IMG/VR virus record: IMGVR_UViG_3300036893_000044 | Location: 6,192-70,191 of that record | Length of the DNA: 64,000 nucleotides | From: a virus | Strand: one strand, 5' to 3' | Shown here: piece by piece, positions 6,743 through 37,830 of the stretch | Numbering within the stretch: position 1 is the first letter of the stretch | How the letters are laid out: each line of letters begins with the position of its first letter | Program-made: the position numbers and the translations under genes | Notes under the pieces: model-generated | Seen by the model: the letters and a program-made list of their open reading frames with translations, nothing else | Told to the model about the DNA's origin: nothing | Databases searched by the model: none

Positions 6743-7275
6743 GAAAGCTCCTTTCGTGTTGCTCTCGGTTTTTTGACTTCTACAAGTGCGCCGCGAATTC
6801 CAGATCGATCAAGAATTTGCGAATCGGCGGTTGAGTAAGCGATCAAGGCTGATGGACCGCCAGCATTTCCAGTTGCGCTCGATCCATCGGGGTAGCGAAA
6901 ATAGAGACGCCCTGCGATAAACAACACAGAATCAGCATACGGCCAAATCCACTTTTGCCAGACATCAATTTCAGTTCGCGCAAAGACTAATGCGATCCCC
7001 CGACCATGAAGCGCCATTCTTTCCATCCAGCCCCCGAGAGATTCGTCGTAAGGCGGATTGAGCCACACGCGGCCAGTTCCCCAGTTTTCTGTGAGCCCGT
7101 CTGTTGGGAGTTCTATATGCCTCGCAGCGGTCGGCCAGGGTCGCGGTGATGGAGCTGCGCAGGGGTCAAGGTCGAATGTTCCGAGTGCCTGCAGGATACT
7201 TGGCGGTGTCAACCAAATAACATCCTGCCCTTTGTTGGGTTTTGTGTGACCGCCGATTCCTTGAACTCCTCTCAT
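6718..7275 (-). CDS. Phage DNA N6-adenine methyltransferase (Dam-like)
   Basis: WLTPP, FDLDPCA, DGL..W, VWLNPPY, ARTE..W, GRL.F motifs. Confidence 0.88.
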   Translation of the reverse strand: MRGVQGIGGHTKPNKGQDVIWLTPPSILQALGTFDLDPCAAPSPRPWPTAARHIELPTDGLTENWGTGRVWLNPPYDESLGGWMERMALHGRGIALVFARTEIDVWQKWIWPYADSVLFIAGRLYFRYPDGSSATGNAGGPSALIAYSTADSQILDRSGIRGALVEVKKPRATRKELSCPPTHNS

Positions 7276-8615
7276 ATGGCGGTCTCCTGGGTAAAGTCTA
7301 GTACGGATTGTTTGAGACGGCAGCGGATTCCGATGTCGATATATTCGGGGTTGAGTTCGATTCCCACACTTTTACAGTTGAGCTTCGACGCGACCTGCAT
7401 TGTAGTCAGCGAGCCGGCGAAAGGATCGAGGACAACTCCGCCCGCTGGGCATCCGGCGAGGATACAAGGCTTGATCAACTCTTGCGGGAAGGTGGCGAAG
7501 TGGGCCTCGGCGAATGGCTCTGAAGCGATAGTCCACACACTGCGTTTGTTGCGGGTGCCGTAGGCTGTGTCCGCAATTTTTAGAAGTCCAGCTGCGGTTC
7601 TGTGCTCTTCTGAATCAGACTTTTCGTACTCCGCAACTGTCTTGTGAGTTTTATTTCCAGATGCGCGTCCAGCCACTTCTATATACTCGCTTGCGCCGGT
7701 CCACTCCCAGCGACTAACTGCGCCAGTATCCCATCCATCCGGCATCTTGATCTTGCGCACATTCCCCATAACAGTCGAATTGCCACCCTCTCCATTGTCA
7801 AAAGTTGAGTTATTCACGTAGGCACCCCCGCGAAACGTCGGCCGAGATTCATCTTGCGTGCAGGGTTCTTTGATCGCCTCCATATCGCAGCGGTACCGCT
7901 CACTTTTGGTTAGCAGAAAAATATATTCATGCGCTTTGGTGCACCGATCCGTCACGCTCTCCGGCATTGGATTAGGCTTCGACCAAATGATGTCCTGCCG
8001 CAGCCACCAACCGTCATCCTGAAGCGCGAACGCGAAGCGCCAGGGGATGCCTACCAAATCTTTAGGCTTTAACCTAGGCGCGGTTCGTGATCCAATCGTG
8101 AGGCATCCGGCGTTGGTTTGTTGCTTCCACCCAGCCACATCGTTTCGCTTAACACCTTGCGCCCGTTGACCCGGCGAAGCGCAATAGGAGTCACCAAGAT
8201 TCACCCAGCAGGTTCCATCTTTCTGTAGCACCCGGCGAATTTCTTGGAATACTACAACCATTTTCTCGATATACTCACGCGGAGTTTTCTCCAGCCCGAT
8301 CTGGTTATCCACGCGCACTGCGCCACACTTTCCGCAAACCTGCGCATATGGCATCCCGCCAGTCTCTTCCTTGTACCGCTGGCCACCTCCATTCTTCCAC
8401 TCGCCGAGAGTTGATGCTCCACTGGTTTGCGACCTGCCGCGGTGGTCGCAGTGAGGAAATCCACCCTGCCACTCAGCGGTTCCGTAATCTCTTAGTCCCC
8501 AGTACGGCGGCGAGGTCACCACGCAATTCACACTCTCATCCGGCATCTGCCGCAGCACGTCGAGCACGTGGCCCTGGTAAACCGTCACCGGACCGTCTTC
8601 AAAATAAGGCGTCAT
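7272..8615 (-). CDS. Site-specific DNA methyltransferase (N4-C/N6-A, beta class)
   Basis: VTSPPYWGLRDY catalytic motif N-terminal, HFATFP and VLDPFAGS SAM-binding motif C-terminal. Confidence 0.92.
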   Translation of the reverse strand: MTPYFEDGPVTVYQGHVLDVLRQMPDESVNCVVTSPPYWGLRDYGTAEWQGGFPHCDHRGRSQTSGASTLGEWKNGGGQRYKEETGGMPYAQVCGKCGAVRVDNQIGLEKTPREYIEKMVVVFQEIRRVLQKDGTCWVNLGDSYCASPGQRAQGVKRNDVAGWKQQTNAGCLTIGSRTAPRLKPKDLVGIPWRFAFALQDDGWWLRQDIIWSKPNPMPESVTDRCTKAHEYIFLLTKSERYRCDMEAIKEPCTQDESRPTFRGGAYVNNSTFDNGEGGNSTVMGNVRKIKMPDGWDTGAVSRWEWTGASEYIEVAGRASGNKTHKTVAEYEKSDSEEHRTAAGLLKIADTAYGTRNKRSVWTIASEPFAEAHFATFPQELIKPCILAGCPAGGVVLDPFAGSLTTMQVASKLNCKSVGIELNPEYIDIGIRCRLKQSVLDFTQETAI

Positions 8616-10257: not shown

Positions 10258-10938
10258 ATGCCGGCAGCCGCCAAGAAAACCAGAGCGCTCGCCATCGTCA
10301 AACCGCAGGCGCGCGGTGGGCGCCGCTTCATGCCGAGTCCAGGCGCTGCCGATCTGCGTCGATGGTTTATGTTCGACACGTTGGGCATGACTGAGCAGGC
10401 GATTGCCGAAAAAGAGAAAACAAATCCGCTCAACGTCCGTGATTCCATCGACTACATCAAGGAATGGAAATTTCGTAACTCGACGGCGATGCTCGATACA
10501 AAGTTTGTCGAGGTCGTCATGTCGCAGTTGGATGATGTCGGCAAAGTCTACCAGCGCGGCATGAAGGCAGAGAAGGTCGTCTACGTCAATCAGAAGACCG
10601 GCAAGGTGAAGAAGATGCCGGATATCGCGATGCAGTTGAAGACCGCGGCGGAGATCCGAAACGCGGTTGACACCATCCATCCCAAAGGACCGCTCGTCCA
10701 GAATAACCAGCAGAACAATTTTGGCGCGGCAGGTGGCGGAGGCTACGGGCCAGGCGCGAGCTTCGAGGCAATTCTCCGGAAGAAGCGCGAGGAGAAGGGC
10801 CTGCTTAATTCGCAAGACACCGAGATTATGGATGCCGAGTTGACGCACGAGGAATCGGTCGCCGACGAGTTTAAGGATTTTGGCGGGTCGGGCGACGATG
10901 ACGAAGACGAAGACGAAGACGACGAAGGCGATGAATGA
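10258..10938 (+). CDS. Putative terminase small subunit
   Basis: Directly upstream of and coupled to large terminase; HTH-like N-terminus, acidic tail. Confidence 0.55.
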   Translation: MPAAAKKTRALAIVKPQARGGRRFMPSPGAADLRRWFMFDTLGMTEQAIAEKEKTNPLNVRDSIDYIKEWKFRNSTAMLDTKFVEVVMSQLDDVGKVYQRGMKAEKVVYVNQKTGKVKKMPDIAMQLKTAAEIRNAVDTIHPKGPLVQNNQQNNFGAAGGGGYGPGASFEAILRKKREEKGLLNSQDTEIMDAELTHEESVADEFKDFGGSGDDDEDEDEDDEGDE

Positions 10939-13073
10939 GAGTCCCGCGCCGCAACCAGGGTCTCAACGATGAAATCGAAGTGCTGCAGGACCACTACCTG
11001 CGCTGCGGACAAGACATCACCCGGGCTTGGGCGGAGTTACCATCCGGCGGATTGCAGTTCATCGAAAATGAAGTTGGAAAAGCGCTCGACCTGCGCTACT
11101 ACCTCGAGAATTACCACATCATCAAGACTGAGCATGGGCAACTAAAAACCCTCTTTCCGTTTTGGGATCATCAGGAAATTCTGTATGAGGCGATTCAGGA
11201 AGAGTGGACCGAGCACGGCTATTGCAAAATCATCGTCCTCAAACCCCGCCAGACCGGCATTAGTGTATGGACGGCGGCTTCCATGCTCCACCACACCATG
11301 TTCACGCCCCACTGCTTCACGATGATCGTCGCGCAGAACGACGACACCTCCGAGTACATCTACCAGATGAGCTTGAATGCCTACGCAAATCTTCCATGGT
11401 GGATGAAGCCGGAATGGATGTACAAAACGAAAAACGGTGGCATCGAGTTCCAGCGCAGCGATGAAAAAGAGCGCATGGTGGACCCGGGCCTTGGATCAGG
11501 ATTGCAGGTGTCGGCGGCGACGAAGACTTCAGGTGTCGCCATTGGTCGATCGATTCGAGCTCTTCATGCTTCAGAGGTTAGTCGTTGGCCGAACGATGAG
11601 GTGTACGAAGGCGACATCCGGCCCAGCATGAACGCGCGTGACACGTACCAGGTATTCGAATCCACTGGATTGGGTCGTAGTGGTTTATTTTACGAAGAGT
11701 GGTGTGCGGCTGTTGATGGCGACAGCGATATGAGGCCTGTCTGGATTCCGGTTTACAAGGTCAAGAAGTACTACACCCTGCCAGAGAACATGCCGGGGAC
11801 GTTCGAGCTCGCCGATGACGAGATCACCTTCAACGCACGGATCAAGAAGGAAGAAGACTTCGAGATCCCTGATGCGTTCTGGGACTTCCGGCGGAACCGC
11901 ATGCGCGCCGCTAAGCGCAAGGGAAAGAAGGCCGGCTTCCTTGAGTCGTATCCGTTAACACCGAACGAAGCATTCCAATCGTCAGGACTCTGCGCCTTTG
12001 ACCGCGACTCGCTTGAATGGCAGGAGATGAACAAGGTATGCGATCCACTGTTTGCCGGCGAAATCACGCTCGTCTCGATGGAGCCGCCGCGCATCAACAC
12101 CGACGACATTGCGGTGGTGAAAGAGAAACATGATTTGCCAAAGCGCAAATCTGGCAGGGGCGGGAAACGGCTGTTCATCTGGGAGATGCCAGATAAAGAC
12201 GACACCTACTATGTCTCAATGGACGTGGCGCTCGGCAATGGTGGCGACTACTCGATGGCGACCGTGTGGCGGGCCGGGCAGGGTATAGAGCCGGACTCGA
12301 TTGCGGCGACATGGTGGGGCTGGATCCCGCCAAAGAAATTTGCGCACGTCGGCGCGGCCATCGGAATTTTCTATAACATGGCGGAGATCGCAGTCGAGTA
12401 CATGAAAGACGGTATCACCACGGGCAATGAGTTGCGCGACCTCGATTACCCGAATCTCTACCGGCCGCAATTCAAAGACAAAATCACCAGCCAGGCGACA
12501 AACTATCTTCACTGGCTGACGAACTCAAAGACCCGCGACGAGATCATTGGCTGCATGAATGAGGCGCTGCTCGACCATACGGTTGTCATTCGAGACGCTG
12601 ACATGCTTGACGAGATGATCGACTTCGCGGCGATGGAAACGGATGGCAGGTCTGAAGGGCAAGGCAACAATGACGATTCCGTGATGTCGGGCATGATCGG
12701 CCTCTATTGCCTGCGCGAGACGACGAAGCACTTGAAGACTTCGGCCTCAACGGAAAAAGTTCGGTCCACGGGCGAGTTGCACATTTACGGCGTCTACGAC
12801 AACATCATGCGCCAGCGCGGTCAATACAACACCCAGGCGGAAGCGGACAAGGTGATTCTTGGCAAGGCGGGATGGAGTGTCCGACCGATATTAGTCTGTC
12901 AGGCGAATACGCTTCACTCGCCGATTTGGGATGCTATGGGTGCGGAGCGTGATTTACATTTAAGGCACGGGCTGCACTCGACGGAAATCACTCCGGATGT
13001 TGTGTGGGCATACAAATCGGCGATGATGAACGCAGGACCGTCGCAAAACGAAGAGTTCGGAGCGGATTGGTAA
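10935..13073 (+). CDS. terL: Terminase large subunit
   Basis: LKPRQTGIS Walker A variant, LHASEVSRW Walker B, ESTG coupling motif, nuclease MDVALG.GGDYS..AVE..NDDSVMS. Confidence 0.92.
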   Translation: MRVPRRNQGLNDEIEVLQDHYLRCGQDITRAWAELPSGGLQFIENEVGKALDLRYYLENYHIIKTEHGQLKTLFPFWDHQEILYEAIQEEWTEHGYCKIIVLKPRQTGISVWTAASMLHHTMFTPHCFTMIVAQNDDTSEYIYQMSLNAYANLPWWMKPEWMYKTKNGGIEFQRSDEKERMVDPGLGSGLQVSAATKTSGVAIGRSIRALHASEVSRWPNDEVYEGDIRPSMNARDTYQVFESTGLGRSGLFYEEWCAAVDGDSDMRPVWIPVYKVKKYYTLPENMPGTFELADDEITFNARIKKEEDFEIPDAFWDFRRNRMRAAKRKGKKAGFLESYPLTPNEAFQSSGLCAFDRDSLEWQEMNKVCDPLFAGEITLVSMEPPRINTDDIAVVKEKHDLPKRKSGRGGKRLFIWEMPDKDDTYYVSMDVALGNGGDYSMATVWRAGQGIEPDSIAATWWGWIPPKKFAHVGAAIGIFYNMAEIAVEYMKDGITTGNELRDLDYPNLYRPQFKDKITSQATNYLHWLTNSKTRDEIIGCMNEALLDHTVVIRDADMLDEMIDFAAMETDGRSEGQGNNDDSVMSGMIGLYCLRETTKHLKTSASTEKVRSTGELHIYGVYDNIMRQRGQYNTQAEADKVILGKAGWSVRPILVCQANTLHSPIWDAMGAERDLHLRHGLHSTEITPDVVWAYKSAMMNAGPSQNEEFGADW

Positions 13074-13876: not shown

Positions 13877-15676
13877 ATGGCCGATTCGACCGAGAGACCG
13901 GAAGCTGCGCTGGAGCGGGAAGTACTCGCCTGGTCCGACTCCGTTTACGACGAAGCGGAGCGGGAACTTGCCGACTCCCGCGAAATTCGGCTGACATCCC
14001 GGCTCATCGACTACATCTCCGGCCAGCAGTGGAACGCTAAATCCCGCTTCGGCCGCAGTCGGCCAACCGTGAACCGCCTCTTCCGGCAGTTCATGGAAAT
14101 GGCGGGTATCCTCACCGACATCGAGCCGGACTTTCAGGTTAAGTTCCACAACGAAGACGAGCAATTCACCGCTCTCCAGACCCTGCTCAACGAGATGATT
14201 ACCATGTGGGCGCAGGTGACGGACTTCGAAGCGGAGCTCACCCAGTCCGTCATGTGGGCGCTGCTCCACACGGGATTCGCCAAAATCCAATGGAACGGCG
14301 CGATGAACAACGGGATGGGGGATAACGAGTTCATGCCCCTTGGACCGCTGAATGTGATGAGTATCGGCGCGGGGAAGAAGCTGCAGGACGACGAATGCGT
14401 CATTGGCCGCTGGCCGGTAACGATCGAAACCCTCAAGCGGACGTTTGGCGAGCTGGCAAACGATGTGCAAGCCGACCTCGAAACCAATGAGCCGACCGGC
14501 GAAGTATCGCGGCCCGGCAAGATGTCGCAGGCGTCATGGGTCCGGCTGAATCCGCAGTTGAAGAAGATGCTCGGCAAACGGCAGTTGGATGGCAAGCGCA
14601 GCCGCTATCCGAAGGCGATGCTCAAGCAATTCTGGTTCAAGGACGCTTCGATCAATGAGGGTTCTGTCACGAAAAGAGTCGGCGACGAGCGGTACAACTG
14701 GTCGTATCTCGTCGAACCCGGAATGCCGTGGTACCCGCGCGGTCGGTTCCTGATTGTCGCCGGCGGCAAGGTTCTCCAGGACCAATGCAATCCCTACTGG
14801 CACGGCATGTTTCCCTTCGCCAAGCTCCGGCTGATTCGGGTGCCATGGTCGAGCCAGGGAGTTTCTCCGCTCGAACCCATAGCCCAAATGTCCGACATCG
14901 TAAACCGGATCAACGGCGGCCTGATGGACATGATTCGAGCCGTGATCGAGCCGCGCATCGTGGCGCCAAAGGCGGCATTCGCACAGTCTGTCTGGGATTC
15001 GATGGATCCCGGCGCACCCGGTTCTAAGATGATGTACAACAACAACACGCCGCGGGAACCGTCTTTCCCCAAACCAGCCGAGTTGCCGGCCTACGTTCTC
15101 CAGATGAAGCAGGATGTCGAGAAAGAGCAGGACATGACATCCGGCGCGTCGGCCATCAACCAGTCTTTGCAGAAAAAGCAGGTGCCGGGCGGAGACTCTC
15201 TGGAGATGATCCTGAATTCCCGGTCGATCCCCGTGCGCTTTATGGGCCGGGGCCTCTACTCGTTTCTCACCGATACCGGTACCCAGGTCGCTTCGAACAT
15301 CATGCAATTCTCGACCTCGAAGAGCCGGATCGCCAAATTCGGCACCAAGGGTCTGACGGACGCCGACTTCGAGCAACCCTTCGGCCAGTGGTTCTCGATG
15401 GCGAAGGGTATGGAGCCGGAGCAGTTCGTGCGCCAGGCGGTGTTCTCCATCCGCAAGGGCAGCTTGCTCGCCATCGAGAAGAACGAGGAAGTACAGATCG
15501 CGTTCTCGATGGTTAAAATGGGCGTGCTGTCGAGGAAGGCGCTGTATCGCAAGCTCGGGATTCCTACCGCTGAACAAGAGCGGATTGAGAAAGAGTTGCT
15601 GGAAGAGGCCAAAGAGAAGATTGCGCTGGCTCAGGCGGCTGGGGCCGGGCAGCATCCCGCACACGGTAAGAAGTGA
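13877..15676 (+). CDS. Portal protein
   Basis: 599 aa after terL; P22-like portal features (NPYWHG.FPF, Q..D.VN, DMTSG.S...Q). Confidence 0.85.
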   Translation: MADSTERPEAALEREVLAWSDSVYDEAERELADSREIRLTSRLIDYISGQQWNAKSRFGRSRPTVNRLFRQFMEMAGILTDIEPDFQVKFHNEDEQFTALQTLLNEMITMWAQVTDFEAELTQSVMWALLHTGFAKIQWNGAMNNGMGDNEFMPLGPLNVMSIGAGKKLQDDECVIGRWPVTIETLKRTFGELANDVQADLETNEPTGEVSRPGKMSQASWVRLNPQLKKMLGKRQLDGKRSRYPKAMLKQFWFKDASINEGSVTKRVGDERYNWSYLVEPGMPWYPRGRFLIVAGGKVLQDQCNPYWHGMFPFAKLRLIRVPWSSQGVSPLEPIAQMSDIVNRINGGLMDMIRAVIEPRIVAPKAAFAQSVWDSMDPGAPGSKMMYNNNTPREPSFPKPAELPAYVLQMKQDVEKEQDMTSGASAINQSLQKKQVPGGDSLEMILNSRSIPVRFMGRGLYSFLTDTGTQVASNIMQFSTSKSRIAKFGTKGLTDADFEQPFGQWFSMAKGMEPEQFVRQAVFSIRKGSLLAIEKNEEVQIAFSMVKMGVLSRKALYRKLGIPTAEQERIEKELLEEAKEKIALAQAAGAGQHPAHGKK

Positions 15677-17870: not shown

Positions 17871-18845
17871 ATGGCGCTGAACATCAATGATATTTCGGCC
17901 GTAACGAAGCAGGAGATCGTCCCCGAGATCGTGGACGAATACTACAAGGTTTCTCCGGTCTTCGTTCTGATCTTCAAGGGTGAGACAGTCAAGCCCTTCC
18001 CGGGCGGCCTCTACATCCAGCAGCCCATCCAGTACGCGCCTCTGAAGGCCGGTCCGTTCGCGCCCGGGTCCACCTTCGACATCTCCTATGTCCAGACGGA
18101 CACGGCGATGACTTTCGCGGTGAAGTTCTATTACGCCAACGTGACCATCCAGGGGACTCAGCTTCCCATCAACATGGGCACGAACGCGGTGATGAGCTTC
18201 GTCGAAGAGAAGATGATCAATGGCTCGCAGGCTCTGGCCCAGGCGCTCGCCATCGACATCTACAACGACGGCCAGGGCACCGTCTCTTCACAGATCGCCC
18301 TCGACGGGTTGCTTGCCGGGTACGACGACGGCACCAACTATCCGACTTACGGCGGGCTTCCCCGCGCGGCCATCGGTACCGGCGCCTCGACCGGCATCAA
18401 CGGCTACTATCAGAACGTGGCCGGACCCCTCTCGGTCACCGCTCTGCAGAAGGCATACGGCCAGGCCACCTTCGGAAACCGGCAGCCAAACCTCATCGCC
18501 ACCACGCAGTCGATCTACAACCAGCTCTACAACAAGTTGGTTCCGGCGCAGCGTGTCAACGACAACATCATGATCGACCAGGCGCAGAATATTGGCTTCA
18601 CCGCCATCCGGTTCAACAACCAGCGCCTTGTTGTCGATCAGTATGTGCCGACCGGCTATGTCTTCGGCATGAACACCGACTTTCTCAATGTCCACATCTC
18701 CGATCACGAGCTCTTTGGCTTCGGCTTCACCGGGTTCAAGGAACTGCCGAACTCAGTGGACAGCGCCGGCCAGCTTTGCTTCGGCGGTGACATCGTGGTG
18801 AGCGCGCCGCGGTTGGGCTTTATCTTGTCCGGGGTGACTGGGTAA
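17871..18845 (+). CDS. Major capsid protein (HK97 fold)
   Basis: IVD..Y..SP, GG..IQQPI, LA..IY.DG.G..LDGL, QPNLI.T, VVD..VP.G.VF.MN, G.IV.SAPR; strong codon bias. Confidence 0.88.
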   Translation: MALNINDISAVTKQEIVPEIVDEYYKVSPVFVLIFKGETVKPFPGGLYIQQPIQYAPLKAGPFAPGSTFDISYVQTDTAMTFAVKFYYANVTIQGTQLPINMGTNAVMSFVEEKMINGSQALAQALAIDIYNDGQGTVSSQIALDGLLAGYDDGTNYPTYGGLPRAAIGTGASTGINGYYQNVAGPLSVTALQKAYGQATFGNRQPNLIATTQSIYNQLYNKLVPAQRVNDNIMIDQAQNIGFTAIRFNNQRLVVDQYVPTGYVFGMNTDFLNVHISDHELFGFGFTGFKELPNSVDSAGQLCFGGDIVVSAPRLGFILSGVTG

Positions 18846-19596: not shown

Positions 19597-20820
19597 ATGT
19601 CTTTGACGCTCACCAAAGTACCGGATTCCACACAGAACGCCGGGGTATCGCAGGTCGAAACGATCTATCAGGTCCAGCCTGGCGCGGCTGATTATCCGGC
19701 AGGCGGGTATGTCATCCCAGGCGCATTGGCAACCGGCACGAGTGTTATCGGAAAGCTGGATGGCGAGTTTGTCTATTCGGCAGATATTGCCTCATCGAAC
19801 CTTGCGGGTGCGGGATTTGACGCTTACTTCGTGTTCCCCTCCGGTTCGTTTGGGGCGGTTCCTCAGCCGTCGCAAACCGTCACGATGATTGTGACGATCC
19901 CGAACGCTGCTCCTGGGACGGCACTTGGCCTGAGTCCTCTAACCGCTGTCAAGTCCACCACGGTCGGTGTGACCTCGAACGTTCTGACTGTGGCGATCGC
20001 CAACAGCCTCAAGGTTGGCCAATTCATCTACCTTTCTGGCTTCACCGCCGGTGGCGCGATCAATGGAATGATCTGCCAGGTGGCTACGGCTTCCGCGACT
20101 GGCTTTACGGCCAATCTCCAGACACCGAACATCACGGCGCTGACCGCTGACACCACTGGCCAGTTCCAATTGGTGCAGGCAGGAACCGGAAACCTTCTGA
20201 CCACCGGTGCAGTGGCGGCGATTACCAACTCGCTGTCCACGTCATCGCTGCTGACCATGACTTGCGCGAACACCTTCGTGCCCGGCCAGTTCGTCATCAT
20301 CAACGGCTTGACCAACGGTGCAACCGCCAACGGCGTCATTGCCCAGATTCTGACGGCATCCAGCACGCAGTTCACCGCCAACTGGACCGGCACTTCATTC
20401 ACGACGGCCGCCGATACCGGAACCGCTTCTCTGCTTGTTACCGCAGGTGGCGCTCCAGTTACCACCAGCACCGCATTCAGCATCACAAACTCGCTGGCGA
20501 CGGCTTCTTCGGCTGGCACTGCCGGTCTGGTTACGCTGACCGCGAACAACAGCCTCTCACCTGGCGCGCTGGTTGTCATTCAAGGATTGACCAATGGCGC
20601 TGGCGTCAACGGCGACGTGTTGACCGTCCTCAACTCGGCATCTTTGACCGCCAAGATTTTCACGGCAAACTACAAGAATGCGGGTTTCACCACGGCGGCC
20701 GATACTGGCGTAGCTTCACAGCTCGTCACCGGCATCCCGACCAGCGCTCCGCAGGTTTCTCCCGGCACGGATCTCAGCGCATGCACCTGGTTCCTGAGCA
20801 TCGTCCAGAGCGGCCTGTAA
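19597..20820 (+). CDS. Virion structural protein with three beta-repeat (FCCH-like) domains
   Basis: Three ~95-aa repeats LT...N....G..V.I.GLTNG...NG....FTAN...FTTAADTG. Confidence 0.7.
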   Translation: MSLTLTKVPDSTQNAGVSQVETIYQVQPGAADYPAGGYVIPGALATGTSVIGKLDGEFVYSADIASSNLAGAGFDAYFVFPSGSFGAVPQPSQTVTMIVTIPNAAPGTALGLSPLTAVKSTTVGVTSNVLTVAIANSLKVGQFIYLSGFTAGGAINGMICQVATASATGFTANLQTPNITALTADTTGQFQLVQAGTGNLLTTGAVAAITNSLSTSSLLTMTCANTFVPGQFVIINGLTNGATANGVIAQILTASSTQFTANWTGTSFTTAADTGTASLLVTAGGAPVTTSTAFSITNSLATASSAGTAGLVTLTANNSLSPGALVVIQGLTNGAGVNGDVLTVLNSASLTAKIFTANYKNAGFTTAADTGVASQLVTGIPTSAPQVSPGTDLSACTWFLSIVQSGL

Positions 20821-20833
20821 GGCTTTAATCAAA

Positions 20834-20867
20834 GAGGGGCGGGGTTCAAAACAGTTCCGCGCCCCTC
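20834..20867 (+). terminator. Stem-loop after head genes (attenuator/terminator)
   Basis: GAGGGGCG...CGCCCCTC; no strong U-tract. Confidence 0.4.
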
Positions 20868-20892
20868 CCCTCCATTTTAGGAGGGTATCCCG

Positions 20893-21918
20893 ATTCCAAT
20901 CGTTCCACCAATCGTTATTCCCCAGCAGGTCCAACCGAATGTTGGTGTGCTGCCGTTCGTGCAGCAGATGAACTTTGGGCAGATGCAGGGGTCCGCAACA
21001 GCCTGGAATCCCAATTGCGTGGCCCAGATGCCTGGCTGGATCAATCAGATTGTCAGACAAGTCTATGCGAAAAAGACTTGGTATGGTCTCTTCACTAAGG
21101 GCCAGATTATTTGCCCCGCATCGGTGAGCGGCGGCACAGCCACGGTCACTTTCAATTCCAATACCATTCAGGGCAACGGAACTACCTGGGATCAAACCCT
21201 CATCGGTCGCCAGTTCCGCGCAGGCCTCAATACGCCACCATACACCATCACGGGAGTCGATCCATTTGCTCAGGTGCTGACGATCGAGCTTCCTTGGGGC
21301 GGACCTTTTGCGCCCGGGCAGACGACGCAAACCACCGGCTACTACATCATCCAGATGTATTACAGTTTTGGACCGAACATCAAATACATCAAGACCTGCG
21401 TGAATATGCAGATGGGGTTCAAACTATGGACGAATCTCACCCAGGATTATCTCGACAATCGTGACCCATGGCGCATCACCGTGAACTTTCCGTGGGGCCT
21501 GGCTCCGGTTGCGACCGACCCGAATGGCAATTACATGGTCGAGCTCTGGCCGGCGCCGTTCACGCAGCAGGCCCTGCCTTTTAATGTCTACACGCAGCCG
21601 GCTAACCTCGTGAACGACAACGATAGTCTACCGCCGTACATCCGCTGCGACGTAATCGTCAAGGAAGCGATGTGCTGGGCGCTCAGGTGGAAGCCAAAGG
21701 AAAATCCTGGCTACGATCCGCAGACGGCGCTGAGTTTGTCGAACACGTTTCACCAGGAACACGAGGCGTTGCTCCTCGATATGGCGAACGAGGATGAAAA
21801 CCTCTATCGCACCTCGGCCACAATCCAAGGCGAGGATTTGCCGTTCTACACGCCGGGCGGCGCTCTTTGGGATGCGCAACATGCCGTCATGTCCGGCGGC
21901 GGCGCAAATGACTGGTAA
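20893..21918 (+). CDS. Putative head-tail adaptor protein (possible ATT start)
   Basis: AGGAGG at 20879 precedes in-frame ATT; GW(I)NQ..RQ, VELWPAP adaptor-type motifs. Confidence 0.65.
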   Translation: MPIVPPIVIPQQVQPNVGVLPFVQQMNFGQMQGSATAWNPNCVAQMPGWINQIVRQVYAKKTWYGLFTKGQIICPASVSGGTATVTFNSNTIQGNGTTWDQTLIGRQFRAGLNTPPYTITGVDPFAQVLTIELPWGGPFAPGQTTQTTGYYIIQMYYSFGPNIKYIKTCVNMQMGFKLWTNLTQDYLDNRDPWRITVNFPWGLAPVATDPNGNYMVELWPAPFTQQALPFNVYTQPANLVNDNDSLPPYIRCDVIVKEAMCWALRWKPKENPGYDPQTALSLSNTFHQEHEALLLDMANEDENLYRTSATIQGEDLPFYTPGGALWDAQHAVMSGGGANDW

Positions 21919-21948
21919 TGTTCGATTGGAAGGGTGGTAACATTTCGT

Positions 21949-22317
21949 ATGTCGCAAACCTGTGAATCCTGTGGCGTATCCGTTTATCGCAAGGTGTACG
22001 AGACGAACGCGGAAGGCAAATTCGTCGGTCTAGGCGTAGACTGCGGATGCAAGCGAGTGGCTGTCATCAAGAAAGCTCAGACGAATAGCTTTTGCCTCAC
22101 GCTCGATCATGTGGCGGATGAATTTGGCCAGAAACTCCACGTCGAAAATCTCCGCCAGCTTTCGGCCGCGGAGAAGCGTTACGGTTTCCAGAGTGTCGTC
22201 CTCAACTCCGACGCGCAGAACTTCGATGACCCGCCACAACAACGCAGGATCGAAGTCGCCGACATTCACCGATTCAAGTACGGCAGCAGGGAAAGCTATA
22301 GACGGAGGTTCGCATGA
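21949..22317 (+). CDS. Hypothetical Zn-ribbon protein
   Basis: CESC..CGC; ORF in late operon. Confidence 0.6.
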   Translation: MSQTCESCGVSVYRKVYETNAEGKFVGLGVDCGCKRVAVIKKAQTNSFCLTLDHVADEFGQKLHVENLRQLSAAEKRYGFQSVVLNSDAQNFDDPPQQRRIEVADIHRFKYGSRESYRRRFA

Positions 22318-22514
22318 ACAGGCGAGAGTTTGGAAAGACGGTGTTGGCGGTTGCGGCGGCGACGGCAGCTGCTCCATCTACCTTGGTAGCCAAGCCGGAA
22401 TTCTATCCTGAAGGCAACTGTCCGATCACGCTCAAGATGTTGCAGGATGCCTATGCTCAGGCAACATTCAACTTACCGCATCCGAACCTCTTTATTCCGG
22501 AGGCTTTCTTATGA
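22314..22514 (+). CDS. Tat-signal-like peptide fused to capsid-like fragment
   Basis: MNRREF + hydrophobic region; C-terminus 12/23 identical to MCP; ATGA-coupled at both ends, GGAGG RBS. Confidence 0.7.
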   Translation: MNRREFGKTVLAVAAATAAAPSTLVAKPEFYPEGNCPITLKMLQDAYAQATFNLPHPNLFIPEAFL

Positions 22515-22870
22515 CCACGCCTAGCAACCGCATCCACGACACATTCCGCAATCGCAACTACGGCAAGATCGAAGCGCCGCAGAACACCAAGAGCGCGACC
22601 GACAGCTTCCACATCGACCGCTCGCGGCTGGGTGTTCACGATGAGTTTGACCCGGATGCGGCGAACGATTGGGGCGGTAAAGGGAAGTACGTCCTCAAGC
22701 CGAATTCGATCATGGACAATGTTCGCGGTGCCATGGGCGGGATTGGCGCGCGCTCGAGCTACAAGAGCGTGCATGATCCGGCGGAACCGACCTGCACGGA
22801 GTCGCCATGCTGCCCATCACCATATGGCAGCAGCGCGCGGAACCCGCTTACTCGGACAAAGGGAGATTAA
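22511..22870 (+). CDS. Hypothetical protein
   Basis: GGAGG RBS; coupled ORF. Confidence 0.6.
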   Translation: MTTPSNRIHDTFRNRNYGKIEAPQNTKSATDSFHIDRSRLGVHDEFDPDAANDWGGKGKYVLKPNSIMDNVRGAMGGIGARSSYKSVHDPAEPTCTESPCCPSPYGSSARNPLTRTKGD

Positions 22871-22872
22871 TC

Positions 22873-23457
22873 ATGGGCGTCAGACCGTTTAGTGGAGTCA
22901 CAACTCTTGCCGGGACCGCGCAGCCAATCTTTGGAACAGCGGTGACCGCCGCCGTTACTCCGCCGCCAGATCCATTCAGCGGCAACTTGACGCCTGGCTC
23001 GAACGAAACCCAGTGCAATCTGACAGTCACTTCTACCACCGGTTTTCTGCCGGGTGACCGCGTGGCCGTTGGTCTGGCCGCGGCATTCAAGCCCGGCATC
23101 ACGGCGACCGGTTCAATTCCAGATCAAGGAACTGTCAAGTCGATCACCTCGTCAACAGTCATGGTCGTCCAGGGCCTCAAGCAAGCGCATGCCGCAACCG
23201 GGGAGTGGTGTGTGCTCAATGAAGATGCCGGCAACGTGCATTTGACGCCAGTGGCAATCACAGCCATCGCTTATGTCGGCAATGCAAGCACAGTGGCCTC
23301 GACCGATCCGAGCGTCATGGACATCCTGCCGATCACCTCCGGGGATCCATCGCAGGTGCTGGATTTTGAGTCGATCGGCGGAACCCAGCCTATGCAGTTG
23401 TCGCAGTTCTGGATTCTTGGGAGCGGAACGTTTATTCCCAGGTTCACGCAAATCTAA
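22873..23457 (+). CDS. Virion structural protein
   Basis: Thr/Gly/Val-rich, LTVTSTTGF.PGD beta motif. Confidence 0.6.
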   Translation: MGVRPFSGVTTLAGTAQPIFGTAVTAAVTPPPDPFSGNLTPGSNETQCNLTVTSTTGFLPGDRVAVGLAAAFKPGITATGSIPDQGTVKSITSSTVMVVQGLKQAHAATGEWCVLNEDAGNVHLTPVAITAIAYVGNASTVASTDPSVMDILPITSGDPSQVLDFESIGGTQPMQLSQFWILGSGTFIPRFTQI

Positions 23458-23459
23458 GT

Positions 23460-23531
23460 TAGAATAGGGGTGTCGGGTGTCTCACCACCCGGCTCTCACC
23501 TCATCGTTCGGAGAAACGACTATGACACCCC
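23460..23531 (+). promoter_or_regulatory. -10 box plus three-way-junction leader sequestering HNH start (copy 1)
   Basis: TAGAAT; GGGGTGTC/GACACCCC; CGGGTG/CACCCG; TCGTT/AACGA. Confidence 0.75.
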
Positions 23532-24205
23532 ACGAAGACATCATACCCTACGGTTACTGCCATTGCGCCTGTGGGCAGAAGACCCTTATTGCGATTCGCG
23601 GCTGGAAGGACGTGAAAGCCGGAGAGCCGAGGAGGTATATCCACGGCCATTCGCACCGGATAAGGTCGATAATTGAAGATGCAAAACCATTTAAACTTGC
23701 AGACGAATATTGCCGACTCATTCCTCTTTCTCGAGGTTTATGGTGTATCGTCAGCGCCCATCGCTACGAGTATCTTATGCAATGGAAATGGTACGCATGG
23801 TTTTGGGAAAAGACCGGGAAATTCTACGCCGTGAGGAGTGGCCCGAGGATTAATGGAAGCCCAACTAGGATACTCATGCACCGCGCCATTCTTGGCTTGA
23901 TAGGTGGGGATAGAAGGCGTGGCGATCATATTGTTTCCGAAGACACACTAAATAATGCCGATAAAAACCTGCGCACAGGAACTGCTTCACAGAACAATCA
24001 AAACAGCAAAATAAGATCCGACAACACTACCGGATTCAAGGGCGTGTACTTTTATAAAGACGGTCGCAAAAAGCCGTGGATGGCACACATAACTGTAGAT
24101 AGAAAGCGGATCATTCTCGGTTATTTTGAAACCAAAGAAGAGGCGTACGAGGCTTATTGTGATGCCGCCAAAAAATACTTTGGCGAGTTTGCTAGGCTCA
24201 AGTAA
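23522..24205 (+). CDS. HNH-AP2 homing endonuclease 1
   Basis: GYCHCACG, MHRAI, DH..TLNN..NLR..QN..N, NTTGFKGV..LGYF...EEAY.AY..AA..YFGEFA. Confidence 0.9.
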   Translation: MTPHEDIIPYGYCHCACGQKTLIAIRGWKDVKAGEPRRYIHGHSHRIRSIIEDAKPFKLADEYCRLIPLSRGLWCIVSAHRYEYLMQWKWYAWFWEKTGKFYAVRSGPRINGSPTRILMHRAILGLIGGDRRRGDHIVSEDTLNNADKNLRTGTASQNNQNSKIRSDNTTGFKGVYFYKDGRKKPWMAHITVDRKRIILGYFETKEEAYEAYCDAAKKYFGEFARLK

Positions 24206-24214
24206 AATGAAGCG

Positions 24215-24910
24215 ATGGCAACAACCCCCATTTCGGTGCTCGCGGCGAACATTCAGAGTCGTTTAGAAGAGGTGCCGGGAAGCGCTGGGAGTTGGTGGAG
24301 CCAGCAGTTTGAAATCTTCAGCGCAATTGAGGAAGCTCAAAACGATCTGCTATTGTTGGTTGGCAGGCCAACAAGTTACGTCAACGTCCCCTTCACCCTC
24401 GTTCCGAATAACTGCTTTCAGACAGTCCCGAAGGGCTTGCTACTCATCACCGACGTTCAAGGATTCTCGTCCCCGTTATACAAGGTGAATTTGATAGATT
24501 TAGATTTTTTAATGACGAGCTGGGGGCCGGATTGGGCTCAAGATGTGGACAACGCGGCTTACCGGTGGGCGCCAATCGGGTTCAATATGTTCGCGGTTCA
24601 TCCGGCAGTCGCCACGGCGCAGACCGTCAACATCACCGCAATTCAGTATCCGACGACCGATGTCTGGCCCTATACTGGAGCGGAGACGGTTCAGTTTGAA
24701 GACAATTACTTCCAGTTGATTGAGGAGTATGCTGCCTTCTACTGCCGCATCAAGGAGATGGGTGGGGAGTTCCAGGAGGGCATGAAGCTATTCGAGCAAT
24801 ACATGCTCGGCGCGAAGCGCATGACCCAGATTCAAGACAAGCGCGACCCGTTACTCTTCACTTCCGGCTTCGGCGGAACTCAGAACGTCAACCCGGGAAC
24901 AAGGCGATAA
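24215..24910 (+). CDS. Putative head-tail connector/tail tubular protein
   Basis: Adaptor-like motifs (IEEAQ, AVHP, EYAA.Y); late operon. Confidence 0.6.
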   Translation: MATTPISVLAANIQSRLEEVPGSAGSWWSQQFEIFSAIEEAQNDLLLLVGRPTSYVNVPFTLVPNNCFQTVPKGLLLITDVQGFSSPLYKVNLIDLDFLMTSWGPDWAQDVDNAAYRWAPIGFNMFAVHPAVATAQTVNITAIQYPTTDVWPYTGAETVQFEDNYFQLIEEYAAFYCRIKEMGGEFQEGMKLFEQYMLGAKRMTQIQDKRDPLLFTSGFGGTQNVNPGTRR

Positions 24911-24961
24911 TTGTAAAAGTTGGCACAAAATATTCCACTTTTTATTCCAAGGAGGAATTCA

Positions 24962-25270
24962 ATGGCGAACATATCAGCGTTTCACGGCGAAGTCTCAAAG
25001 TGTTCATGTGGACTCGCAGATCATCCCGAAGGAACCGGCGAGCGCGCCTGTGGCCTTTGTTTTGGCAGAGCCTTTGTGGCTTCTTGCACTGCATGCGATG
25101 GCAAAGGCAAAGTCGAGCAGAAGATGGCCGGTGGGCCTGGCACGATGTCCGCGACGTGCTCCCTTTGCGGTGGAAAGGGCGTCTACGGCGTCAACAAGCC
25201 GGCAGACTGGGAAGAGACGCATCCAGCGCAAATTCCCGTCCCGCAAGAGAGCGCTCCTGCGATAGCATAA
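24962..25270 (+). CDS. DnaJ-type zinc-finger protein
   Basis: AGGAGG RBS; CxxCxG repeats. Confidence 0.65.
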   Translation: MANISAFHGEVSKCSCGLADHPEGTGERACGLCFGRAFVASCTACDGKGKVEQKMAGGPGTMSATCSLCGGKGVYGVNKPADWEETHPAQIPVPQESAPAIA

Positions 25271-25324: not shown

Positions 25325-26383
25325 TTGCTAATGGAAGTCGCATTCCACTTGGCACAACCAGCCGTCTACGACACCCTCGTCAACCCCATCACCGCTGGCG
25401 CAGGCGTCACCGCCACAATTCAGTCCACCACCTATGTCTACCCCGGCGCTCAACTCGTCATCGAGAAGCCGGGGGTTTCCTCGCAGGAAGTCGTAACGAT
25501 TCTGACGGTCCCCTCGGCCACCACCTTCACCGCCAATTTTGCCAACAATCATTTGGCAGTGGTCCCCGCCTGGGGGCCGACATTCCCCACCCAGCAAGGC
25601 ACGGACCCGATCTTCACCCAGTCCGAGATGCTGCAGTACCTGTCGCGCGCGCAAAACGAGTTTTTGACGGCCGTACCCTGCTTCTACCAGCGGTTCTTCC
25701 AGAACGTGAGCATGGGGCAGATTTATCAGGCAACGCCTCCAACAGCCATCCTCATCGATCGCATTGCGGCCTCCGCCATCGACATCGGCATCACGTCCAT
25801 GGTGCGCAGCGGCAATATCGTCACGCTTACCGCGGTATCGCCCACAAACCTCGTCCAATACAACACGTTGTCAGTGGTCGGCGCGACCGATTCATCCTTC
25901 AATGGCGTGTTTGCCGTGATCAGCGCGCCGTCCGCGAACGTCATCACCTACCGGCAGATTGCGGCGGATGGATCGACAACCGGCGGCAATATTCAGTCTA
26001 TGTTAAGACTGTACGAGGTCACGCAGGAGGAGCTCGTCCAGCAGAATCGGGCATGGCAGTCGAGCTATGTTGGACCCTTGCAAAGTTGGTTTGAGGATCG
26101 GGCTGGGCTTTATCAATGGGGAGTTGGCGGGCTACCGAGTTCGACGTTCCCGGTGGAGTTGCTAGTAGCTTGTCGAGATAGCGATAGCCTCACGCTTCTA
26201 GATAGCTTCCTCGTCCCAGACGTGGTGGTCCATGCTCTGAAGTATAAGGTTCTTCAATGGTGCTGGGACAAGGACGGCATAGCCCAACAGCCACAGATGG
26301 CGCAGTTTTGTGGGAAGAGATACGATCAAATTGTCATGGCTGCTCAGAGATACATCCAAGCGATGAAGATGAATGTTCGATAG
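25325..26383 (+). CDS. Virion adaptor-like protein with beta-repeat inserts
   Basis: FT.SE..QYL..AQNEF adaptor motif, FCCH-like insert; true start may be upstream. Confidence 0.65.
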   Translation: MLMEVAFHLAQPAVYDTLVNPITAGAGVTATIQSTTYVYPGAQLVIEKPGVSSQEVVTILTVPSATTFTANFANNHLAVVPAWGPTFPTQQGTDPIFTQSEMLQYLSRAQNEFLTAVPCFYQRFFQNVSMGQIYQATPPTAILIDRIAASAIDIGITSMVRSGNIVTLTAVSPTNLVQYNTLSVVGATDSSFNGVFAVISAPSANVITYRQIAADGSTTGGNIQSMLRLYEVTQEELVQQNRAWQSSYVGPLQSWFEDRAGLYQWGVGGLPSSTFPVELLVACRDSDSLTLLDSFLVPDVVVHALKYKVLQWCWDKDGIAQQPQMAQFCGKRYDQIVMAAQRYIQAMKMNVR

Positions 26384-27068
26384 GCACGAAGCTACCATAG
26401 AGTTCAATTTCTTTCGCTTTACGCACAGCCACGGCTTTATCGAAGTCTTTGTAATTACCCAAGTGATAGCGGGTTCCGCCTTTGGCTATTACGACATGCC
26501 ACTTCTCTGACTCTTTCATCCAAACCACGCCGGGGTAGCCGCTCGTATTGTTCGACTGCGTGTTGCGATTGAAGGTATTTTCTGAGCGAGTAGACAGTCT
26601 CAGATTAGCAATTCTGTTGTCGAGGCCGTTGCGGTTTTTATGATCGACAAACATCCCCGGAGGAGGGTGGAGAATAAGGTTATGCAGACGGAGGGGAATC
26701 CTCTGACCGCCCACAATGTCAGTTCTGGTCGCGTAAAAAGTCTTATTTTTAGGGGAGTAATGAGCGCACCAAAACGCAGCATTTATACGGTTATATTCAC
26801 TTGTATCGACTAGAGAGAACAGTCCTTGCGTGAGAGCAATTAAGCGTACCGACAGATCCACTGGATGTTCGGTTGTGGATCGTTTTTTGACCGCTCCGTG
26901 GCCCATACTGAAGGCCTTTGGTATGCCTCTTTTCCAGCCAAAATAAGTGTTGGTTTTGAGGGCGACAGTAGTGGTACGACTGCACCCGCAGTGGCATGTT
27001 CCAAGAGGAATTTGGCAGGCAGGATCGCCGCAAATGCACAGTGCTACACTCAATTCGTGGGGTGTCAT
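26334..27068 (-). CDS. HNH-AP2 homing endonuclease 2
   Basis: CICGDPAC.IP.G.CHCGC, LHNLI, VDHKNRNGLDNR..NLR, NTSGYPGV, AP2 tail. Confidence 0.9.
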   Translation of the reverse strand: MTPHELSVALCICGDPACQIPLGTCHCGCSRTTTVALKTNTYFGWKRGIPKAFSMGHGAVKKRSTTEHPVDLSVRLIALTQGLFSLVDTSEYNRINAAFWCAHYSPKNKTFYATRTDIVGGQRIPLRLHNLILHPPPGMFVDHKNRNGLDNRIANLRLSTRSENTFNRNTQSNNTSGYPGVVWMKESEKWHVVIAKGGTRYHLGNYKDFDKAVAVRKAKEIELYGSFVPIEHSSSSLGCISEQP

Positions 27069-27131
27069 AGTCGGATTCGCCTCCGATGAAGGTTTGCACC
27101 GGGGTTCCCGCCCCGACACCCCTTTATTGTA
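27059..27131 (-). promoter_or_regulatory. -10 box plus three-way-junction leader (copy 2)
   Basis: TACAAT; GGGGTGTC/GACACCCC; CGGGG/CCCCG; TCGGA/TCCGA. Confidence 0.75.
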
Positions 27132-27166
27132 AACCATATAGACGACTCGTGGCATATACTATTCGC

Positions 27167-32271: not shown

Positions 32272-32991
32272 CTATACAACGCAAGCGAATTCGCCGAAGT
32301 ATTTGCGAGCCGCAGCACAATATGCAGCGTAGGCTAATTCCGCCGTGGCGAACAATCCGAGGTACAGATATTTACCATCCACCCTAATTCTCGCAGTCCA
32401 TTTTCTTGATCCCTTAGACCATGAAACGCCCTTATATCCACTGGTATTATTCTTCTGCTTACGGCGATTCTGTTGCTGCTGGGTGCGATTAGCAAGACGC
32501 AAATTACTGTCACGATTATCCAGTGTTCTCCATGGTTTCTTGTGGTCCCCTTTACGTGGATCGCCAGCTTTTAATCCAAGGATTTGGCGATGCATGGAAA
32601 TTGTTCCGCGCATCCCATCCTCTCTTGGATTCAGATTACGTACTGCATAAAACCCCTTTACGCTCTCACACCAAACAGCGCACCACTTCCACTGCATTAA
32701 GTAGGTATAGCGATGAGCACTGACAATAGCCCACTGGCCATTCATTAAAGGGATGAATCGCGCTCCTCTGATGAGCGTCGGACGCTCGCTTTCGGATGGC
32801 CTGATGCCCGATTTGTGGCCACATAGAAACTTATATGGCTCACCTGCCCAAAACCCATTTGTTCTATCTGTGCAACGTGAAATGTTTGTCTTTTTCCCGC
32901 ACCGGCAATGGCAGTAGCCATACGGAATATCGCAGGCGGGATCGCCACAGATGCAACCGTTTAGTGTTACAGTGATTTTGCGAGGGGTCAT
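32272..32991 (-). CDS. HNH-AP2 homing endonuclease 3
   Basis: CICGDPACDIPYGYCHCRCG, MHRQI, DH..TLDNR.SNLR, NTSGYKGV, AP2 tail YFGEFA. Confidence 0.9.
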   Translation of the reverse strand: MTPRKITVTLNGCICGDPACDIPYGYCHCRCGKKTNISRCTDRTNGFWAGEPYKFLCGHKSGIRPSESERPTLIRGARFIPLMNGQWAIVSAHRYTYLMQWKWCAVWCESVKGFYAVRNLNPREDGMRGTISMHRQILGLKAGDPRKGDHKKPWRTLDNRDSNLRLANRTQQQQNRRKQKNNTSGYKGVSWSKGSRKWTARIRVDGKYLYLGLFATAELAYAAYCAAARKYFGEFACVV

Positions 32992-33053
32992 GGTCGTTCC
33001 TCCAGAACGATTAGGCTTGCCAGGCGCTTCCAACGCCCGACCCCTCTAGTATA
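32982..33053 (-). promoter_or_regulatory. -10 box plus three-way-junction leader (copy 3)
   Basis: TATACT; GAGGGGTC/GACCCCTC; CGGGCG/CGCCTG; TCGTTC/GAACGA. Confidence 0.75.
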
Positions 33054-37458: not shown

Positions 37459-37830
37459 ATGGCAATGGATAGAAGAGAATTTTGCGGTGCTGTATTGGTA
37501 ACAGCAACAATGCAGGCGATTGCGTCTAACGGATTAGCGGAGCAACGCAGAATCGTAGGCAGATATATTCTGCAAACTGTCAATTTTCAATGCGTGTGCT
37601 TTGGGCGCAACGATGGGTATCGAGCAGAATATCCTGGATGTAAAAATTACGATCATGAAAATTATTCACTGTACGAGAGGGCGTTTCTTGAGTCGGAATT
37701 ACCGAGAGGACAACAGGCGAAGCATTGGAGTTTTGAAGATTTTGCGAAAACAGCTTTCGAAGAACAACAGTTCTACCGGGATCACTGCCCCGACTATCCC
37801 CATGAAGTGCATAGCCTAGAGGCGAGATAA
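37459..37830 (+). CDS. Tat-signal-like hypothetical protein
   Basis: MDRREF + hydrophobic region; GAGGAGG RBS; AT-richer than neighbours. Confidence 0.6.
   Translation: MAMDRREFCGAVLVTATMQAIASNGLAEQRRIVGRYILQTVNFQCVCFGRNDGYRAEYPGCKNYDHENYSLYERAFLESELPRGQQAKHWSFEDFAKTAFEEQQFYRDHCPDYPHEVHSLEAR

Follow-up and report, generated by a model that had tools for sequence, protein, structure and literature searches.

Signal peptides that send proteins into twin-arginine translocation (Tat) follow the consensus S/T-R-R-x-F-L-K and the -3/-1 rule for signal peptidase, and they are normally conserved at the RR motif only. Short pieces of phage capsid proteins can also act as signals in their own right, as in phage T4, where the Gol peptide, an internal segment of the major capsid protein (MCP), is sensed by the host protease Lit. 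Here we describe a viral gene that appears to join elements of these two kinds. It lies in a stretch of 64,000 nucleotides (nt), referred to throughout as the window, which covers positions 6,192 to 70,191 of the IMG/VR virus record IMGVR_UViG_3300036893_000044 (70,191 bp, classed linear, about 78% complete). The gene, the small open reading frame (ORF) ORF66, begins with a putative Tat-type leader and continues with a segment that resembles part of the phage's own MCP. We consider it evenly balanced whether ORF66 is what this architecture suggests, a dispensable late gene whose export-targeted product carries a copy or mimic of a capsid element behind a Tat-type leader.

ORF66 is a real gene, with a ribosome-binding site, homologues and ATGA overlaps at both ends, its start shared with the TGA of the upstream gene and its stop with the ATG of the downstream one. 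It matches no PHROG or Pfam family, so there is no full-length match to the HK97-fold MCP family. An earlier note on this DNA had paired a 23-residue motif of ORF66 (22422-22490) with one in the MCP (18426-18494) and had read the codon differences between them as a sign of likeness at the protein level. Both points are borne out: the ORF and its motif stand exactly as described, with 12 of 23 residues identical without gaps, and seven of those 12 residues use different codons and five the same one, with 61% nucleotide identity over 69 nt, a likeness of protein rather than DNA. By BLASTP, the resemblance of the C-terminus to the MCP extends over ORF66 residues 30-59 and MCP residues 179-208 (13/30 identical, 28.5 bits, E 5e-6 for the single pair). 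The shuffled controls that the note had named as a check agree, as the Smith-Waterman score of 61 stayed out of reach in three schemes of 5000 shuffles each, in which the ORF, its mature part or the MCP was shuffled (maxima 54, 51 and 57; Gumbel p 2.6e-5, 3.9e-6 and 2.3e-5, respectively). When ORF66 was used as the query against the window's 97 greedy ORFs (20,504 amino acids, aa), the MCP was found at E 3.5e-4, and of all 1368 non-self pairs only three true paralogue pairs ranked above this one, with 25.8 bits for those that came next below.

The AlphaFold2 model of the MCP (pLDDT 68.5, pTM 0.67) had its best Foldseek matches in the capsids of Pa223 (E 4e-10) and SU10 (E 1.1e-8), which assigns it to the HK97 fold. 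Within the A domain of this model, residues 180-185 form a strand, 189-198 a helix and 208-211 the following strand. We found 80 related viral loci with MCPs at 99-40% identity, and the stretch P[LI]S.T.LQKAYGQATFGN.QPNL was among the best conserved in 60 distinct MCP sequences; ORF66 as query matched the MCP segment in 34 of the 80 loci at E<=0.01. The nearest named capsid relatives belong to the Tunturiibacter phages Tunturi_1 and Tunturi_2 (27% identity), which passages of PMC11924767 describe as podoviruses of Acidobacteriota. DNA near-identical to the window was present in peat, permafrost and lake-water metagenomes, and we regard the phage that carries ORF66 as an uncultured peat-soil phage with these podoviruses as its nearest named relatives by capsid.

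Sequence comparison places ORF66 as the short form of a phage-restricted family. Its close relatives have 65-70 aa (P0001, 97% identity; L004, 89%; P0002, 75%; P0005, 62%), and word-index and exhaustive profile searches added more distant ones of 60-150 aa, all of them from phages and either called 'hypothetical protein' or left without a name in their sources. Every member joins the leader to a PE[VF]YPE..N..[IL]T[LF].ML[QH].[AS]Y core, and only the short forms continue with ATF..P.PNL; of the QxAYxQATF motif that the earlier note expected in homologues, the LQ.AY part is therefore family-wide and the rest a mark of the short subfamily. A hidden Markov model (HMM) built from 60 MCPs was run on 15 family members, the most distant at 42% identity. 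In every one of them, the best domain fell on model positions 173-211 (family residues about 28-61), though these members are related to one another and do not make 15 independent tests. The short forms scored 14.9-17.6 bits and the fragment P0012 8.7 bits, in each case reached by 0/1000 shuffles. Additionally, hhalign aligned the family with 27 MCPs over 23 columns (E 1.5e-4), and the aligned residues are helical in both AlphaFold2 models, that of the MCP and that of a long-form relative (L011). At the level of sequence, the MCP likeness is thus a trait of the family and not an accident of one member.

The long forms (123-150 aa) add a beta domain behind the leader and the MCP-like module. 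In the L008-L011 phages (GC content 0.47-0.48), the family gene lies between a large terminase (phrog_5989, E 6.3e-13) and a protein of 726-746 aa. In the L011 model (pLDDT 62.9), residues 42-54 form a helix and residues 60-120 the beta domain (pLDDT about 80-87); ORF66 stops about 10 residues past the helix and lacks this domain. In an exhaustive structural comparison of the beta domain, small chains from phage capsid reconstructions made up 17 of the first 26 rows, with Z values of 6.5/6.4 for FCWL1, 6.2 for the phi29 head-fibre base, 5.9 for Pam3, 5.3 for BB1, 5.0 for Sf11, 3.8 for lambda and TW1 and 3.5 for P23-45, in a range (below 8) where this tool's Z may reflect a common arrangement. 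To judge from chain lengths and entry titles, these chains are probably subunits of the decoration or cement kind, and the long form P0008 had a sub-threshold match to Phage_cement_2 (PF09956, E 0.16). Foldseek found no PDB match for the long form at E<=0.001, and a protein atlas gave no usable match for it; for ORF66, the atlas gave weak leads with scores of 0.75-0.80, short of its 0.9 level and in part from TAT_signal clusters. Between the L011 long form and a 115-aa ORF that follows the MCP, no significant likeness was found.

Searches in other collections found few relatives. Against 185,579 species genomes, profile A2 retrieved no family member, and profile A1, built from three short forms, retrieved leader-only matches and nothing else. 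A metagenome scan yielded one long-form locus (L094), two leader-only loci and no surrounding locus for the short forms P0002 and P0005. The long-form gene of L094 (2298-2729) has TGA in place of the leader's second Arg codon (ATG GAT AGA TGA TCA TTC..), and from the next candidate start codon, TTG at 2316, the product would lack the RR motif; the gene may be broken, or a variant that has no leader.

The same leader is found on copies of other head proteins. A leader-only scan detected 23 viral loci with 19 distinct proteins, among which four carried the MCP-like module with the beta domain, two had passengers of 89 aa, four (plus that of L094) had passengers of 229-247 aa, and the remainder had passengers of no assigned kind. 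In four of the five loci with a 229-247-aa passenger, the phage's own large terminase is encoded next to it, and the passenger matches the C-terminal domain of that protein (35-38% identity, E 1.8e-29 to 5e-37); the L094 copy also matches phrog_2 (E 0.006); in the fifth locus, L099, there was no terminase within the fetched stretch. The 89-aa passenger of L105 (4001-4270) matches residues 457-505 of a probable portal (L105:5164-7404; 20/49 identical, E 5e-11), and the product of a second leader gene in L009 (4553-4879) matches residues 420-460 of the corresponding protein (L009:7659-9581; 16/41 identical, E 4e-7). This protein of 726-746 aa is probably the portal, judging from its position, its size and a sub-threshold P22_portal match (E 0.0014); it has no PHROG match, no PDB sequence match and no significant BLAST match to the portal of the window. 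The broad idea of a leader fused to a head-protein copy, as put forward in the earlier note, thereby found its clearest cases outside the window (E from 1e-29 to 1e-37 for the terminase copies). These parallels are far stronger than the ORF66-MCP likeness and, together with its consistency across the family, make it more credible.

Several further features of these genes were observed. In the L094 alignment, the K-H-D-D stretch of the terminase stands opposite a gap of the copy, and the first acidic position is D, E or Q among the terminase copies; we take these to be the catalytic positions of the large terminase. The portal-like segment occupies the C-terminal 41-49 residues and reads ..W.[YL]L..L....L.QLGL.D..NL...K.N. 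Some phages carry two or three leader genes, in part in tandem (L009, L113 and L114), and the RRxFxK leader genes of L113 (103-384, 381-998 and 4001-4420) and L114 (4001-4291 and 4281-4622), some with overlapping ends, lie on viral contigs with a GC content of 0.51-0.61. Two further candidates were set aside: a 90-aa ORF after the L011 family gene resembled the probable portal only at E 6.6, which is not significant, and the L115/L116 passenger, considered as an MCP-like segment, had no paralogue in its record, no Pfam match and no counterpart in its locus.

The leader of ORF66 has the anatomy of a twin-arginine signal. Residues 2-8 read N-R-R-E-F-G-K, with RR at 3-4, and are followed by 18 uncharged residues from T9 to A26 that include Pro21 and end in L-V-A before K27. 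Across the family alignments, R3, R4, F6 and K8 are invariant or nearly so, and long-form leaders end in x-L-A before E or D. ORF66 thus has RR in an S/T-R-R-x-F-L-K-like context, an uncharged stretch of at least 13 residues and a small residue at -1, as read from the sequence. Some relatives come close to the cut-offs of the Tat models. On TIGR01409, P0002 reached 16.1 bits against a cut-off of 16.7. On PF10518, whose cut-off is 22.7, it reached 21.1 bits; together with the five long forms examined, its range was 16.0-22.4 bits, all too low to pass, and 11 of 14 other leader-bearing proteins tested scored 14.2-20.9 bits, the remaining three (from L113, L115 and window 37459..37830) having no Tat-model match. 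In the leader DNA alignment, synonymous positions vary while the peptide MNRRSFFKFLGIGAATAAVAP is almost fixed, so the peptide is under selection and not recently copied. With moderate confidence, we take the ORF66 N-terminus to be a Tat-type signal.

Look-alike leaders also occur outside phages. The closest, 54-58% identical over 26-28 residues, stand on proteins of a 144-aa family in two Acidobacteriaceae metagenome-assembled genomes (MAGs), and the leader of one Bacteroidetes MAG protein is 63% identical to that of ORF66; the leader alignment A6 gave two weak matches and nothing else against the 185,579 species genomes. In L005, the neighbours of the 144-aa protein are chromosomal genes (FTCD, LysR, GH31, GNAT and SDR). 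TatC (PF00902) was above its cut-off in one of the two Acidobacteriaceae MAGs. The L006 genome (G003:C26:172868-173495) has a TatC match split over two frames (model positions 1-122 and 122-208), either a frameshift or an assembly error. The window itself holds a second leader-like gene (37459-37830, + strand, 123 aa) that starts MAMDRREFCGAVLVTATMQAIASNGLA... and has no paralogue in the window and just one near-identical homologue in a large protein collection.

The constancy of the phage leader peptide also bears on a different role, in which the leader would keep modules like those of capsid, portal and terminase on the cytoplasmic side of the inner membrane or at the Tat receptor, either localising head assembly or packaging there or jamming Tat late in infection. 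The passengers copy proteins that act in the cytoplasm, the genes stand in late or packaging operons (in the window, and between terminase and probable portal in L009, L011 and L105), and the leader peptide is conserved across unrelated passengers, with synonymous codons, far beyond the needs of a generic signal. The signal-peptidase-like ends (L-V-A and x-L-A) and the helix-breaking proline fit a cleaved signal instead, and a gene that is dispensable in nature would be no core assembly factor. We consider such a tether or blocker improbable.

ORF66 is an optional, dispensable gene in a variable slot. Among 27 MCP-related loci with both flanking genes, L014 alone has an ORF66 orthologue, and it lies on the same contig as L004. 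The eight slots that were read hold an unrelated basic ORF of 53-55 aa in seven cases and other ORFs in L055, and the flanking genes abut with almost no gap in L016, L026, L027 and L031. In run X15, a contig of 340 nt passes straight from 22313 to 22511, so that exactly 197 nt are missing and the letters ATGA are common to both sides; this junction is a gene-precise absence of ORF66 in one environmental contig. Contigs of run X16 are identical to the window over 22365-22653; both runs are RNA libraries and show presence rather than transcription. Run X4 had no contig across 22313-22514, and nothing was concluded from it. The slot ORF (..KRKTVKRKTKKRKLHRATKRR..), extremely basic and seen at L017:13170-13337 and likewise in L019, L020, L021, L023, L025 and L030, which are among the nearest kin of the window phage, has no Pfam match.

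The surroundings of ORF66 point to expression with the late genes. The terminase, portal and MCP genes all lie upstream of it in the window. A scan of 21500-23600 for sigma-70-type promoters found no promoter-like site, and the one weak terminator-like hairpin in that region lies inside the end of ORF66 and is no more than shuffled sequence yields; an Rfam scan of 20000-25000 found no RNA family. By the sigma-70-type scan, ORF66 thus lacks the promoter and terminator of its own by which a moron-type or lysogen-expressed exclusion gene is recognised, and it does show the patchy presence between conserved neighbours that marks moron-type genes. Its position inside a late operon without a promoter-like site of its own speaks against a lysogen-expressed exclusion gene.

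Several observations weigh against reading ORF66 as an export-targeted capsid mimic. Its leader, like that of L004, matches neither PF10518 nor TIGR01409 even at E<=10, so that the earlier note's call of a Tat-type signal holds for the anatomy without a match to the models; its RR is followed by E, a G stands in place of the consensus L, and a passenger of ~40 residues is small for a Tat substrate. Regarding the likeness, the all-against-all expectation is ~0.05-0.1 by our own scaling estimate, the hhalign probability for the family against 27 MCPs is only 51.6%, and the long forms score -1.0 to 7.5 bits on the MCP HMM, values reached by 0-81 of 1000 shuffles. The MCP of L011 is distantly homologous to that of the window (hhalign 65.6%; phrog_9953 E 8.5e-7), and the L011 long form does not match it (hhalign E 0.4); in this one long-form phage, the check proposed in the earlier note, whether the C-terminus tracks each phage's own MCP, thus gave no support for such tracking. 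A library-wide search with profile A1 returned ten proteins at E<=0.001, eight family members and two repeat proteins with no MCP among them, so the likeness is significant only within the phage's own proteome. In the model, the MCP segment sits in the A-domain core of the folded capsid protein, which makes a binding target for a free copy hard to see, and the copied proteins work in the cytoplasm, with no periplasmic partner known. Finally, the whole of ORF66 differs between the window and L004 by nine non-synonymous and four synonymous codons. A complex prediction of the MCP with ORF66 residues 27-66 (score 0.00, mark 0.32) counts neither way.

Many of these points would also be expected if ORF66 were a small signal-bearing accessory protein whose MCP likeness arose by chance, with neither evolutionary nor functional meaning. 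The match spans just 23-30 residues, its ATF..P.PNL half is missing from the long forms, and the all-against-all expectation, the hhalign probability, the A1 search and the L011 comparison all fit this explanation. Chance would then also have to account for a score that none of 5000 shuffles reached, for the top rank among 1368 pairs once paralogues are set aside, for the placement of 15/15 members on the same MCP positions and for the matches in 34/80 loci; moreover, the same leader type stands unambiguously on copies of two other head-assembly proteins, which raises the prior for a copy here. We regard chance as possible, if on the unlikely side. In the sequence, the ORF66-MCP likeness is real, moderately significant and suggestive, and alone not decisive.

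The excess of non-synonymous differences from L004 would also suit a decaying remnant, with ORF66 as what is left, cut short and without function, of a long-form gene. There are indeed long relatives of 123-150 aa, most related phages lack the gene, and the 3' end of the window copy is shifted relative to its relatives. At least five distinct short forms of 65-70 aa with 62-97% identity, a constant length and an invariant core point the other way, as do the strong ribosome-binding site and translational coupling, and over core residues 28-53 the window and L004 differ by no non-synonymous and two synonymous changes. A remnant is thus very improbable. At its 3' end (22506-22514), the window copy ends ..EAFL*, and relatives (L004:10193-10213) read ..AFYD(H/P)..; TTATGA in the window against TATGAC in L004 looks like a one-base difference, which would have made the ORF66 product 3-4 residues shorter and created the ATGA overlap with the next gene.

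If ORF66 is indeed an exported capsid mimic, it would be made together with the structural proteins from the late operon, and its RR leader would bring it to the inner membrane and the host's Tat receptor there. Either exported to the periplasm, with the leader cleaved off, or docked at the membrane, the passenger may then take the place of a head-protein surface for some partner. ORF66 would belong to a wider set in which the leader is joined to diverged pieces of the terminase nuclease domain, the probable portal and a decoration-like beta domain. More generally, and tentatively, soil and peat phages may tag diverged, probably non-catalytic copies of head-assembly proteins with a conserved Tat leader as 'addressed mimics', a proposal that we would call unlikely as it stands. 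The pieces would be a capsid A-domain element, a decoration-like domain, a terminase nuclease domain and a portal segment, all produced at the same time as the genuine proteins, the Tat address would remove, sequester or display their binders, such as immune sensors or competitor phage parts, and ORF66 would be the minimal capsid-mimic member.

Large terminase, portal and capsid proteins are the late proteins most often reported to trigger sensors such as Avs, CapRel and Lit. The passenger classes found here are the large terminase, the probable portal and the capsid protein, and the tagged copies could therefore be counter-defence decoys that imitate sensed phage proteins and either sequester the sensors at the membrane or co-export them through Tat. 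The copies are co-expressed with the true proteins in late operons, an accessory and patchy gene is what counter-defence often looks like, and Tat is able to export partners without a signal, according to PMC10924467. Thirty residues, however, would hardly be enough for a sensor to recognise a capsid fold, and we hold a decoy to be quite improbable.

Should export and mimicry both prove true, phages would route copies of their own assembly proteins through the host's export system for folded proteins. This would raise the question of which envelope-located or envelope-carried partner sees a capsid, portal or terminase surface, with lysis timing, the exclusion of rival phages and escape from immune sensors as candidate roles. 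The modest reading also adds to phage biology, namely a new phage protein family and a new leader module under selection across unrelated passengers.

The coordinates of the main features are given in Table 1. One kilobase downstream of ORF66 lies one of three paralogous genes (29-47% identity) at 23477-24205 (+), 26334-27155 (-) and 32272-33033 (-), which have HNH_3 or sub-threshold AP2 domains of homing-endonuclease type and are spread across the structural module; L009 also has a relative (7019-7669). The structural module further contains a 116-aa Cys-rich ORF with CxxCxGxG repeats (24920-25270, + strand) and a sub-threshold match to the DnaJ central domain (E 0.0068).

Table 1. Location of ORF66, its parts, its neighbours and related genes. 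Positions are those of the window unless a locus is named.
Feature	Position	Strand	Basis or remarks
ORF66, 66 codons (stop included)	22314..22514	+	MNRREFGKTVLAVAAATAAAPSTLVAKPEFYPEGNCPITLKMLQDAYAQATFNLPHPNLFIPEAFL
Shine-Dalgarno-like GGAGG, 5 nt ahead of the ORF66 ATG	22304..22308	+	read from sequence
ORF66 leader, residues 1-26, putative Tat-type signal peptide	22314..22391	+	sequence anatomy
ORF66 MCP-like module, residues 30-59 (FYPEGNCPITLKMLQDAYAQATFNLPHPNL), includes the 22422-22490 motif	22401..22490	+	BLASTP, shuffles, profiles
Upstream conserved gene, 127 aa, Cys-rich N-terminus	21934..22317	+	no family match
Downstream conserved gene, 119 aa	22511..22870	+	no family match
Large terminase	10935..13073		phrog_2, E 1.6e-16
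Portal	13877..15676		phrog_156, E 1.1e-9
MCP gene, 324 aa, HK97 fold	17871..18845	+	phrog_9953 major head protein, E 2.8e-24
MCP residues 179-208, segment resembled by ORF66	18405..18494	+	A domain, among the best conserved of the MCP family
Large-terminase-copy genes	L094:1598-2305, L099:1691-2434, L100:4001-4717, L102:2588-3277, L110:2760-3503

A limited search of the open-access literature and of databases found no description of such a gene design, the phage passages of a 2026 Tat review include no phage-encoded Tat substrate of this kind, and no family library names ORF66. Its architecture thus appears to lie outside the described kinds, and it touches several of them. With the Tat signals behind PF10518 and TIGR01409, ORF66 shares the RR motif, an uncharged stretch of moderate hydrophobicity with Pro at its end and a small residue at -1; unlike them, it is encoded by a phage, has a passenger of ~40 residues and, in the window copy, matches neither model, and the L009/L011-type leader peptide is, unusually for Tat signals, almost invariant across unrelated passengers. 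Like the T4 RI antiholin and superinfection-exclusion proteins such as P22 SieA, ORF66 is small, putatively envelope-directed, dispensable and patchy. Unlike them, it sits translationally coupled within a late structural operon, with no promoter-like site to itself. We know of no protein of the RI or exclusion type that has a leader of the Tat type or copies a segment of a virion protein.

The remaining parallels are with the capsid itself. Thirty residues of ORF66 align to the strand-helix-loop of the A domain in HK97-fold MCPs (phrog_9953), but they span less than a tenth of the fold with a DNA likeness of 61%, and ORF66 cannot be a capsid protein. Decoration and cement proteins (PF09956, the phi29 gp8.5 base, lambda gpD and the capsid-stabilising protein of TW1) are structurally nearest to the C-terminal domain of the long forms, with Z values of 6.5-3.5 that are middling by the tool's scale; ORF66 lacks such a beta-tulip domain, and decoration proteins, to our knowledge, carry no export leader. 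The T4 Gol/Lit system resembles ORF66 in that a short internal MCP segment would be the active unit, but whereas the Gol peptide lies inside the capsid protein itself, the segment in ORF66 forms a separate gene with its own putative export leader.

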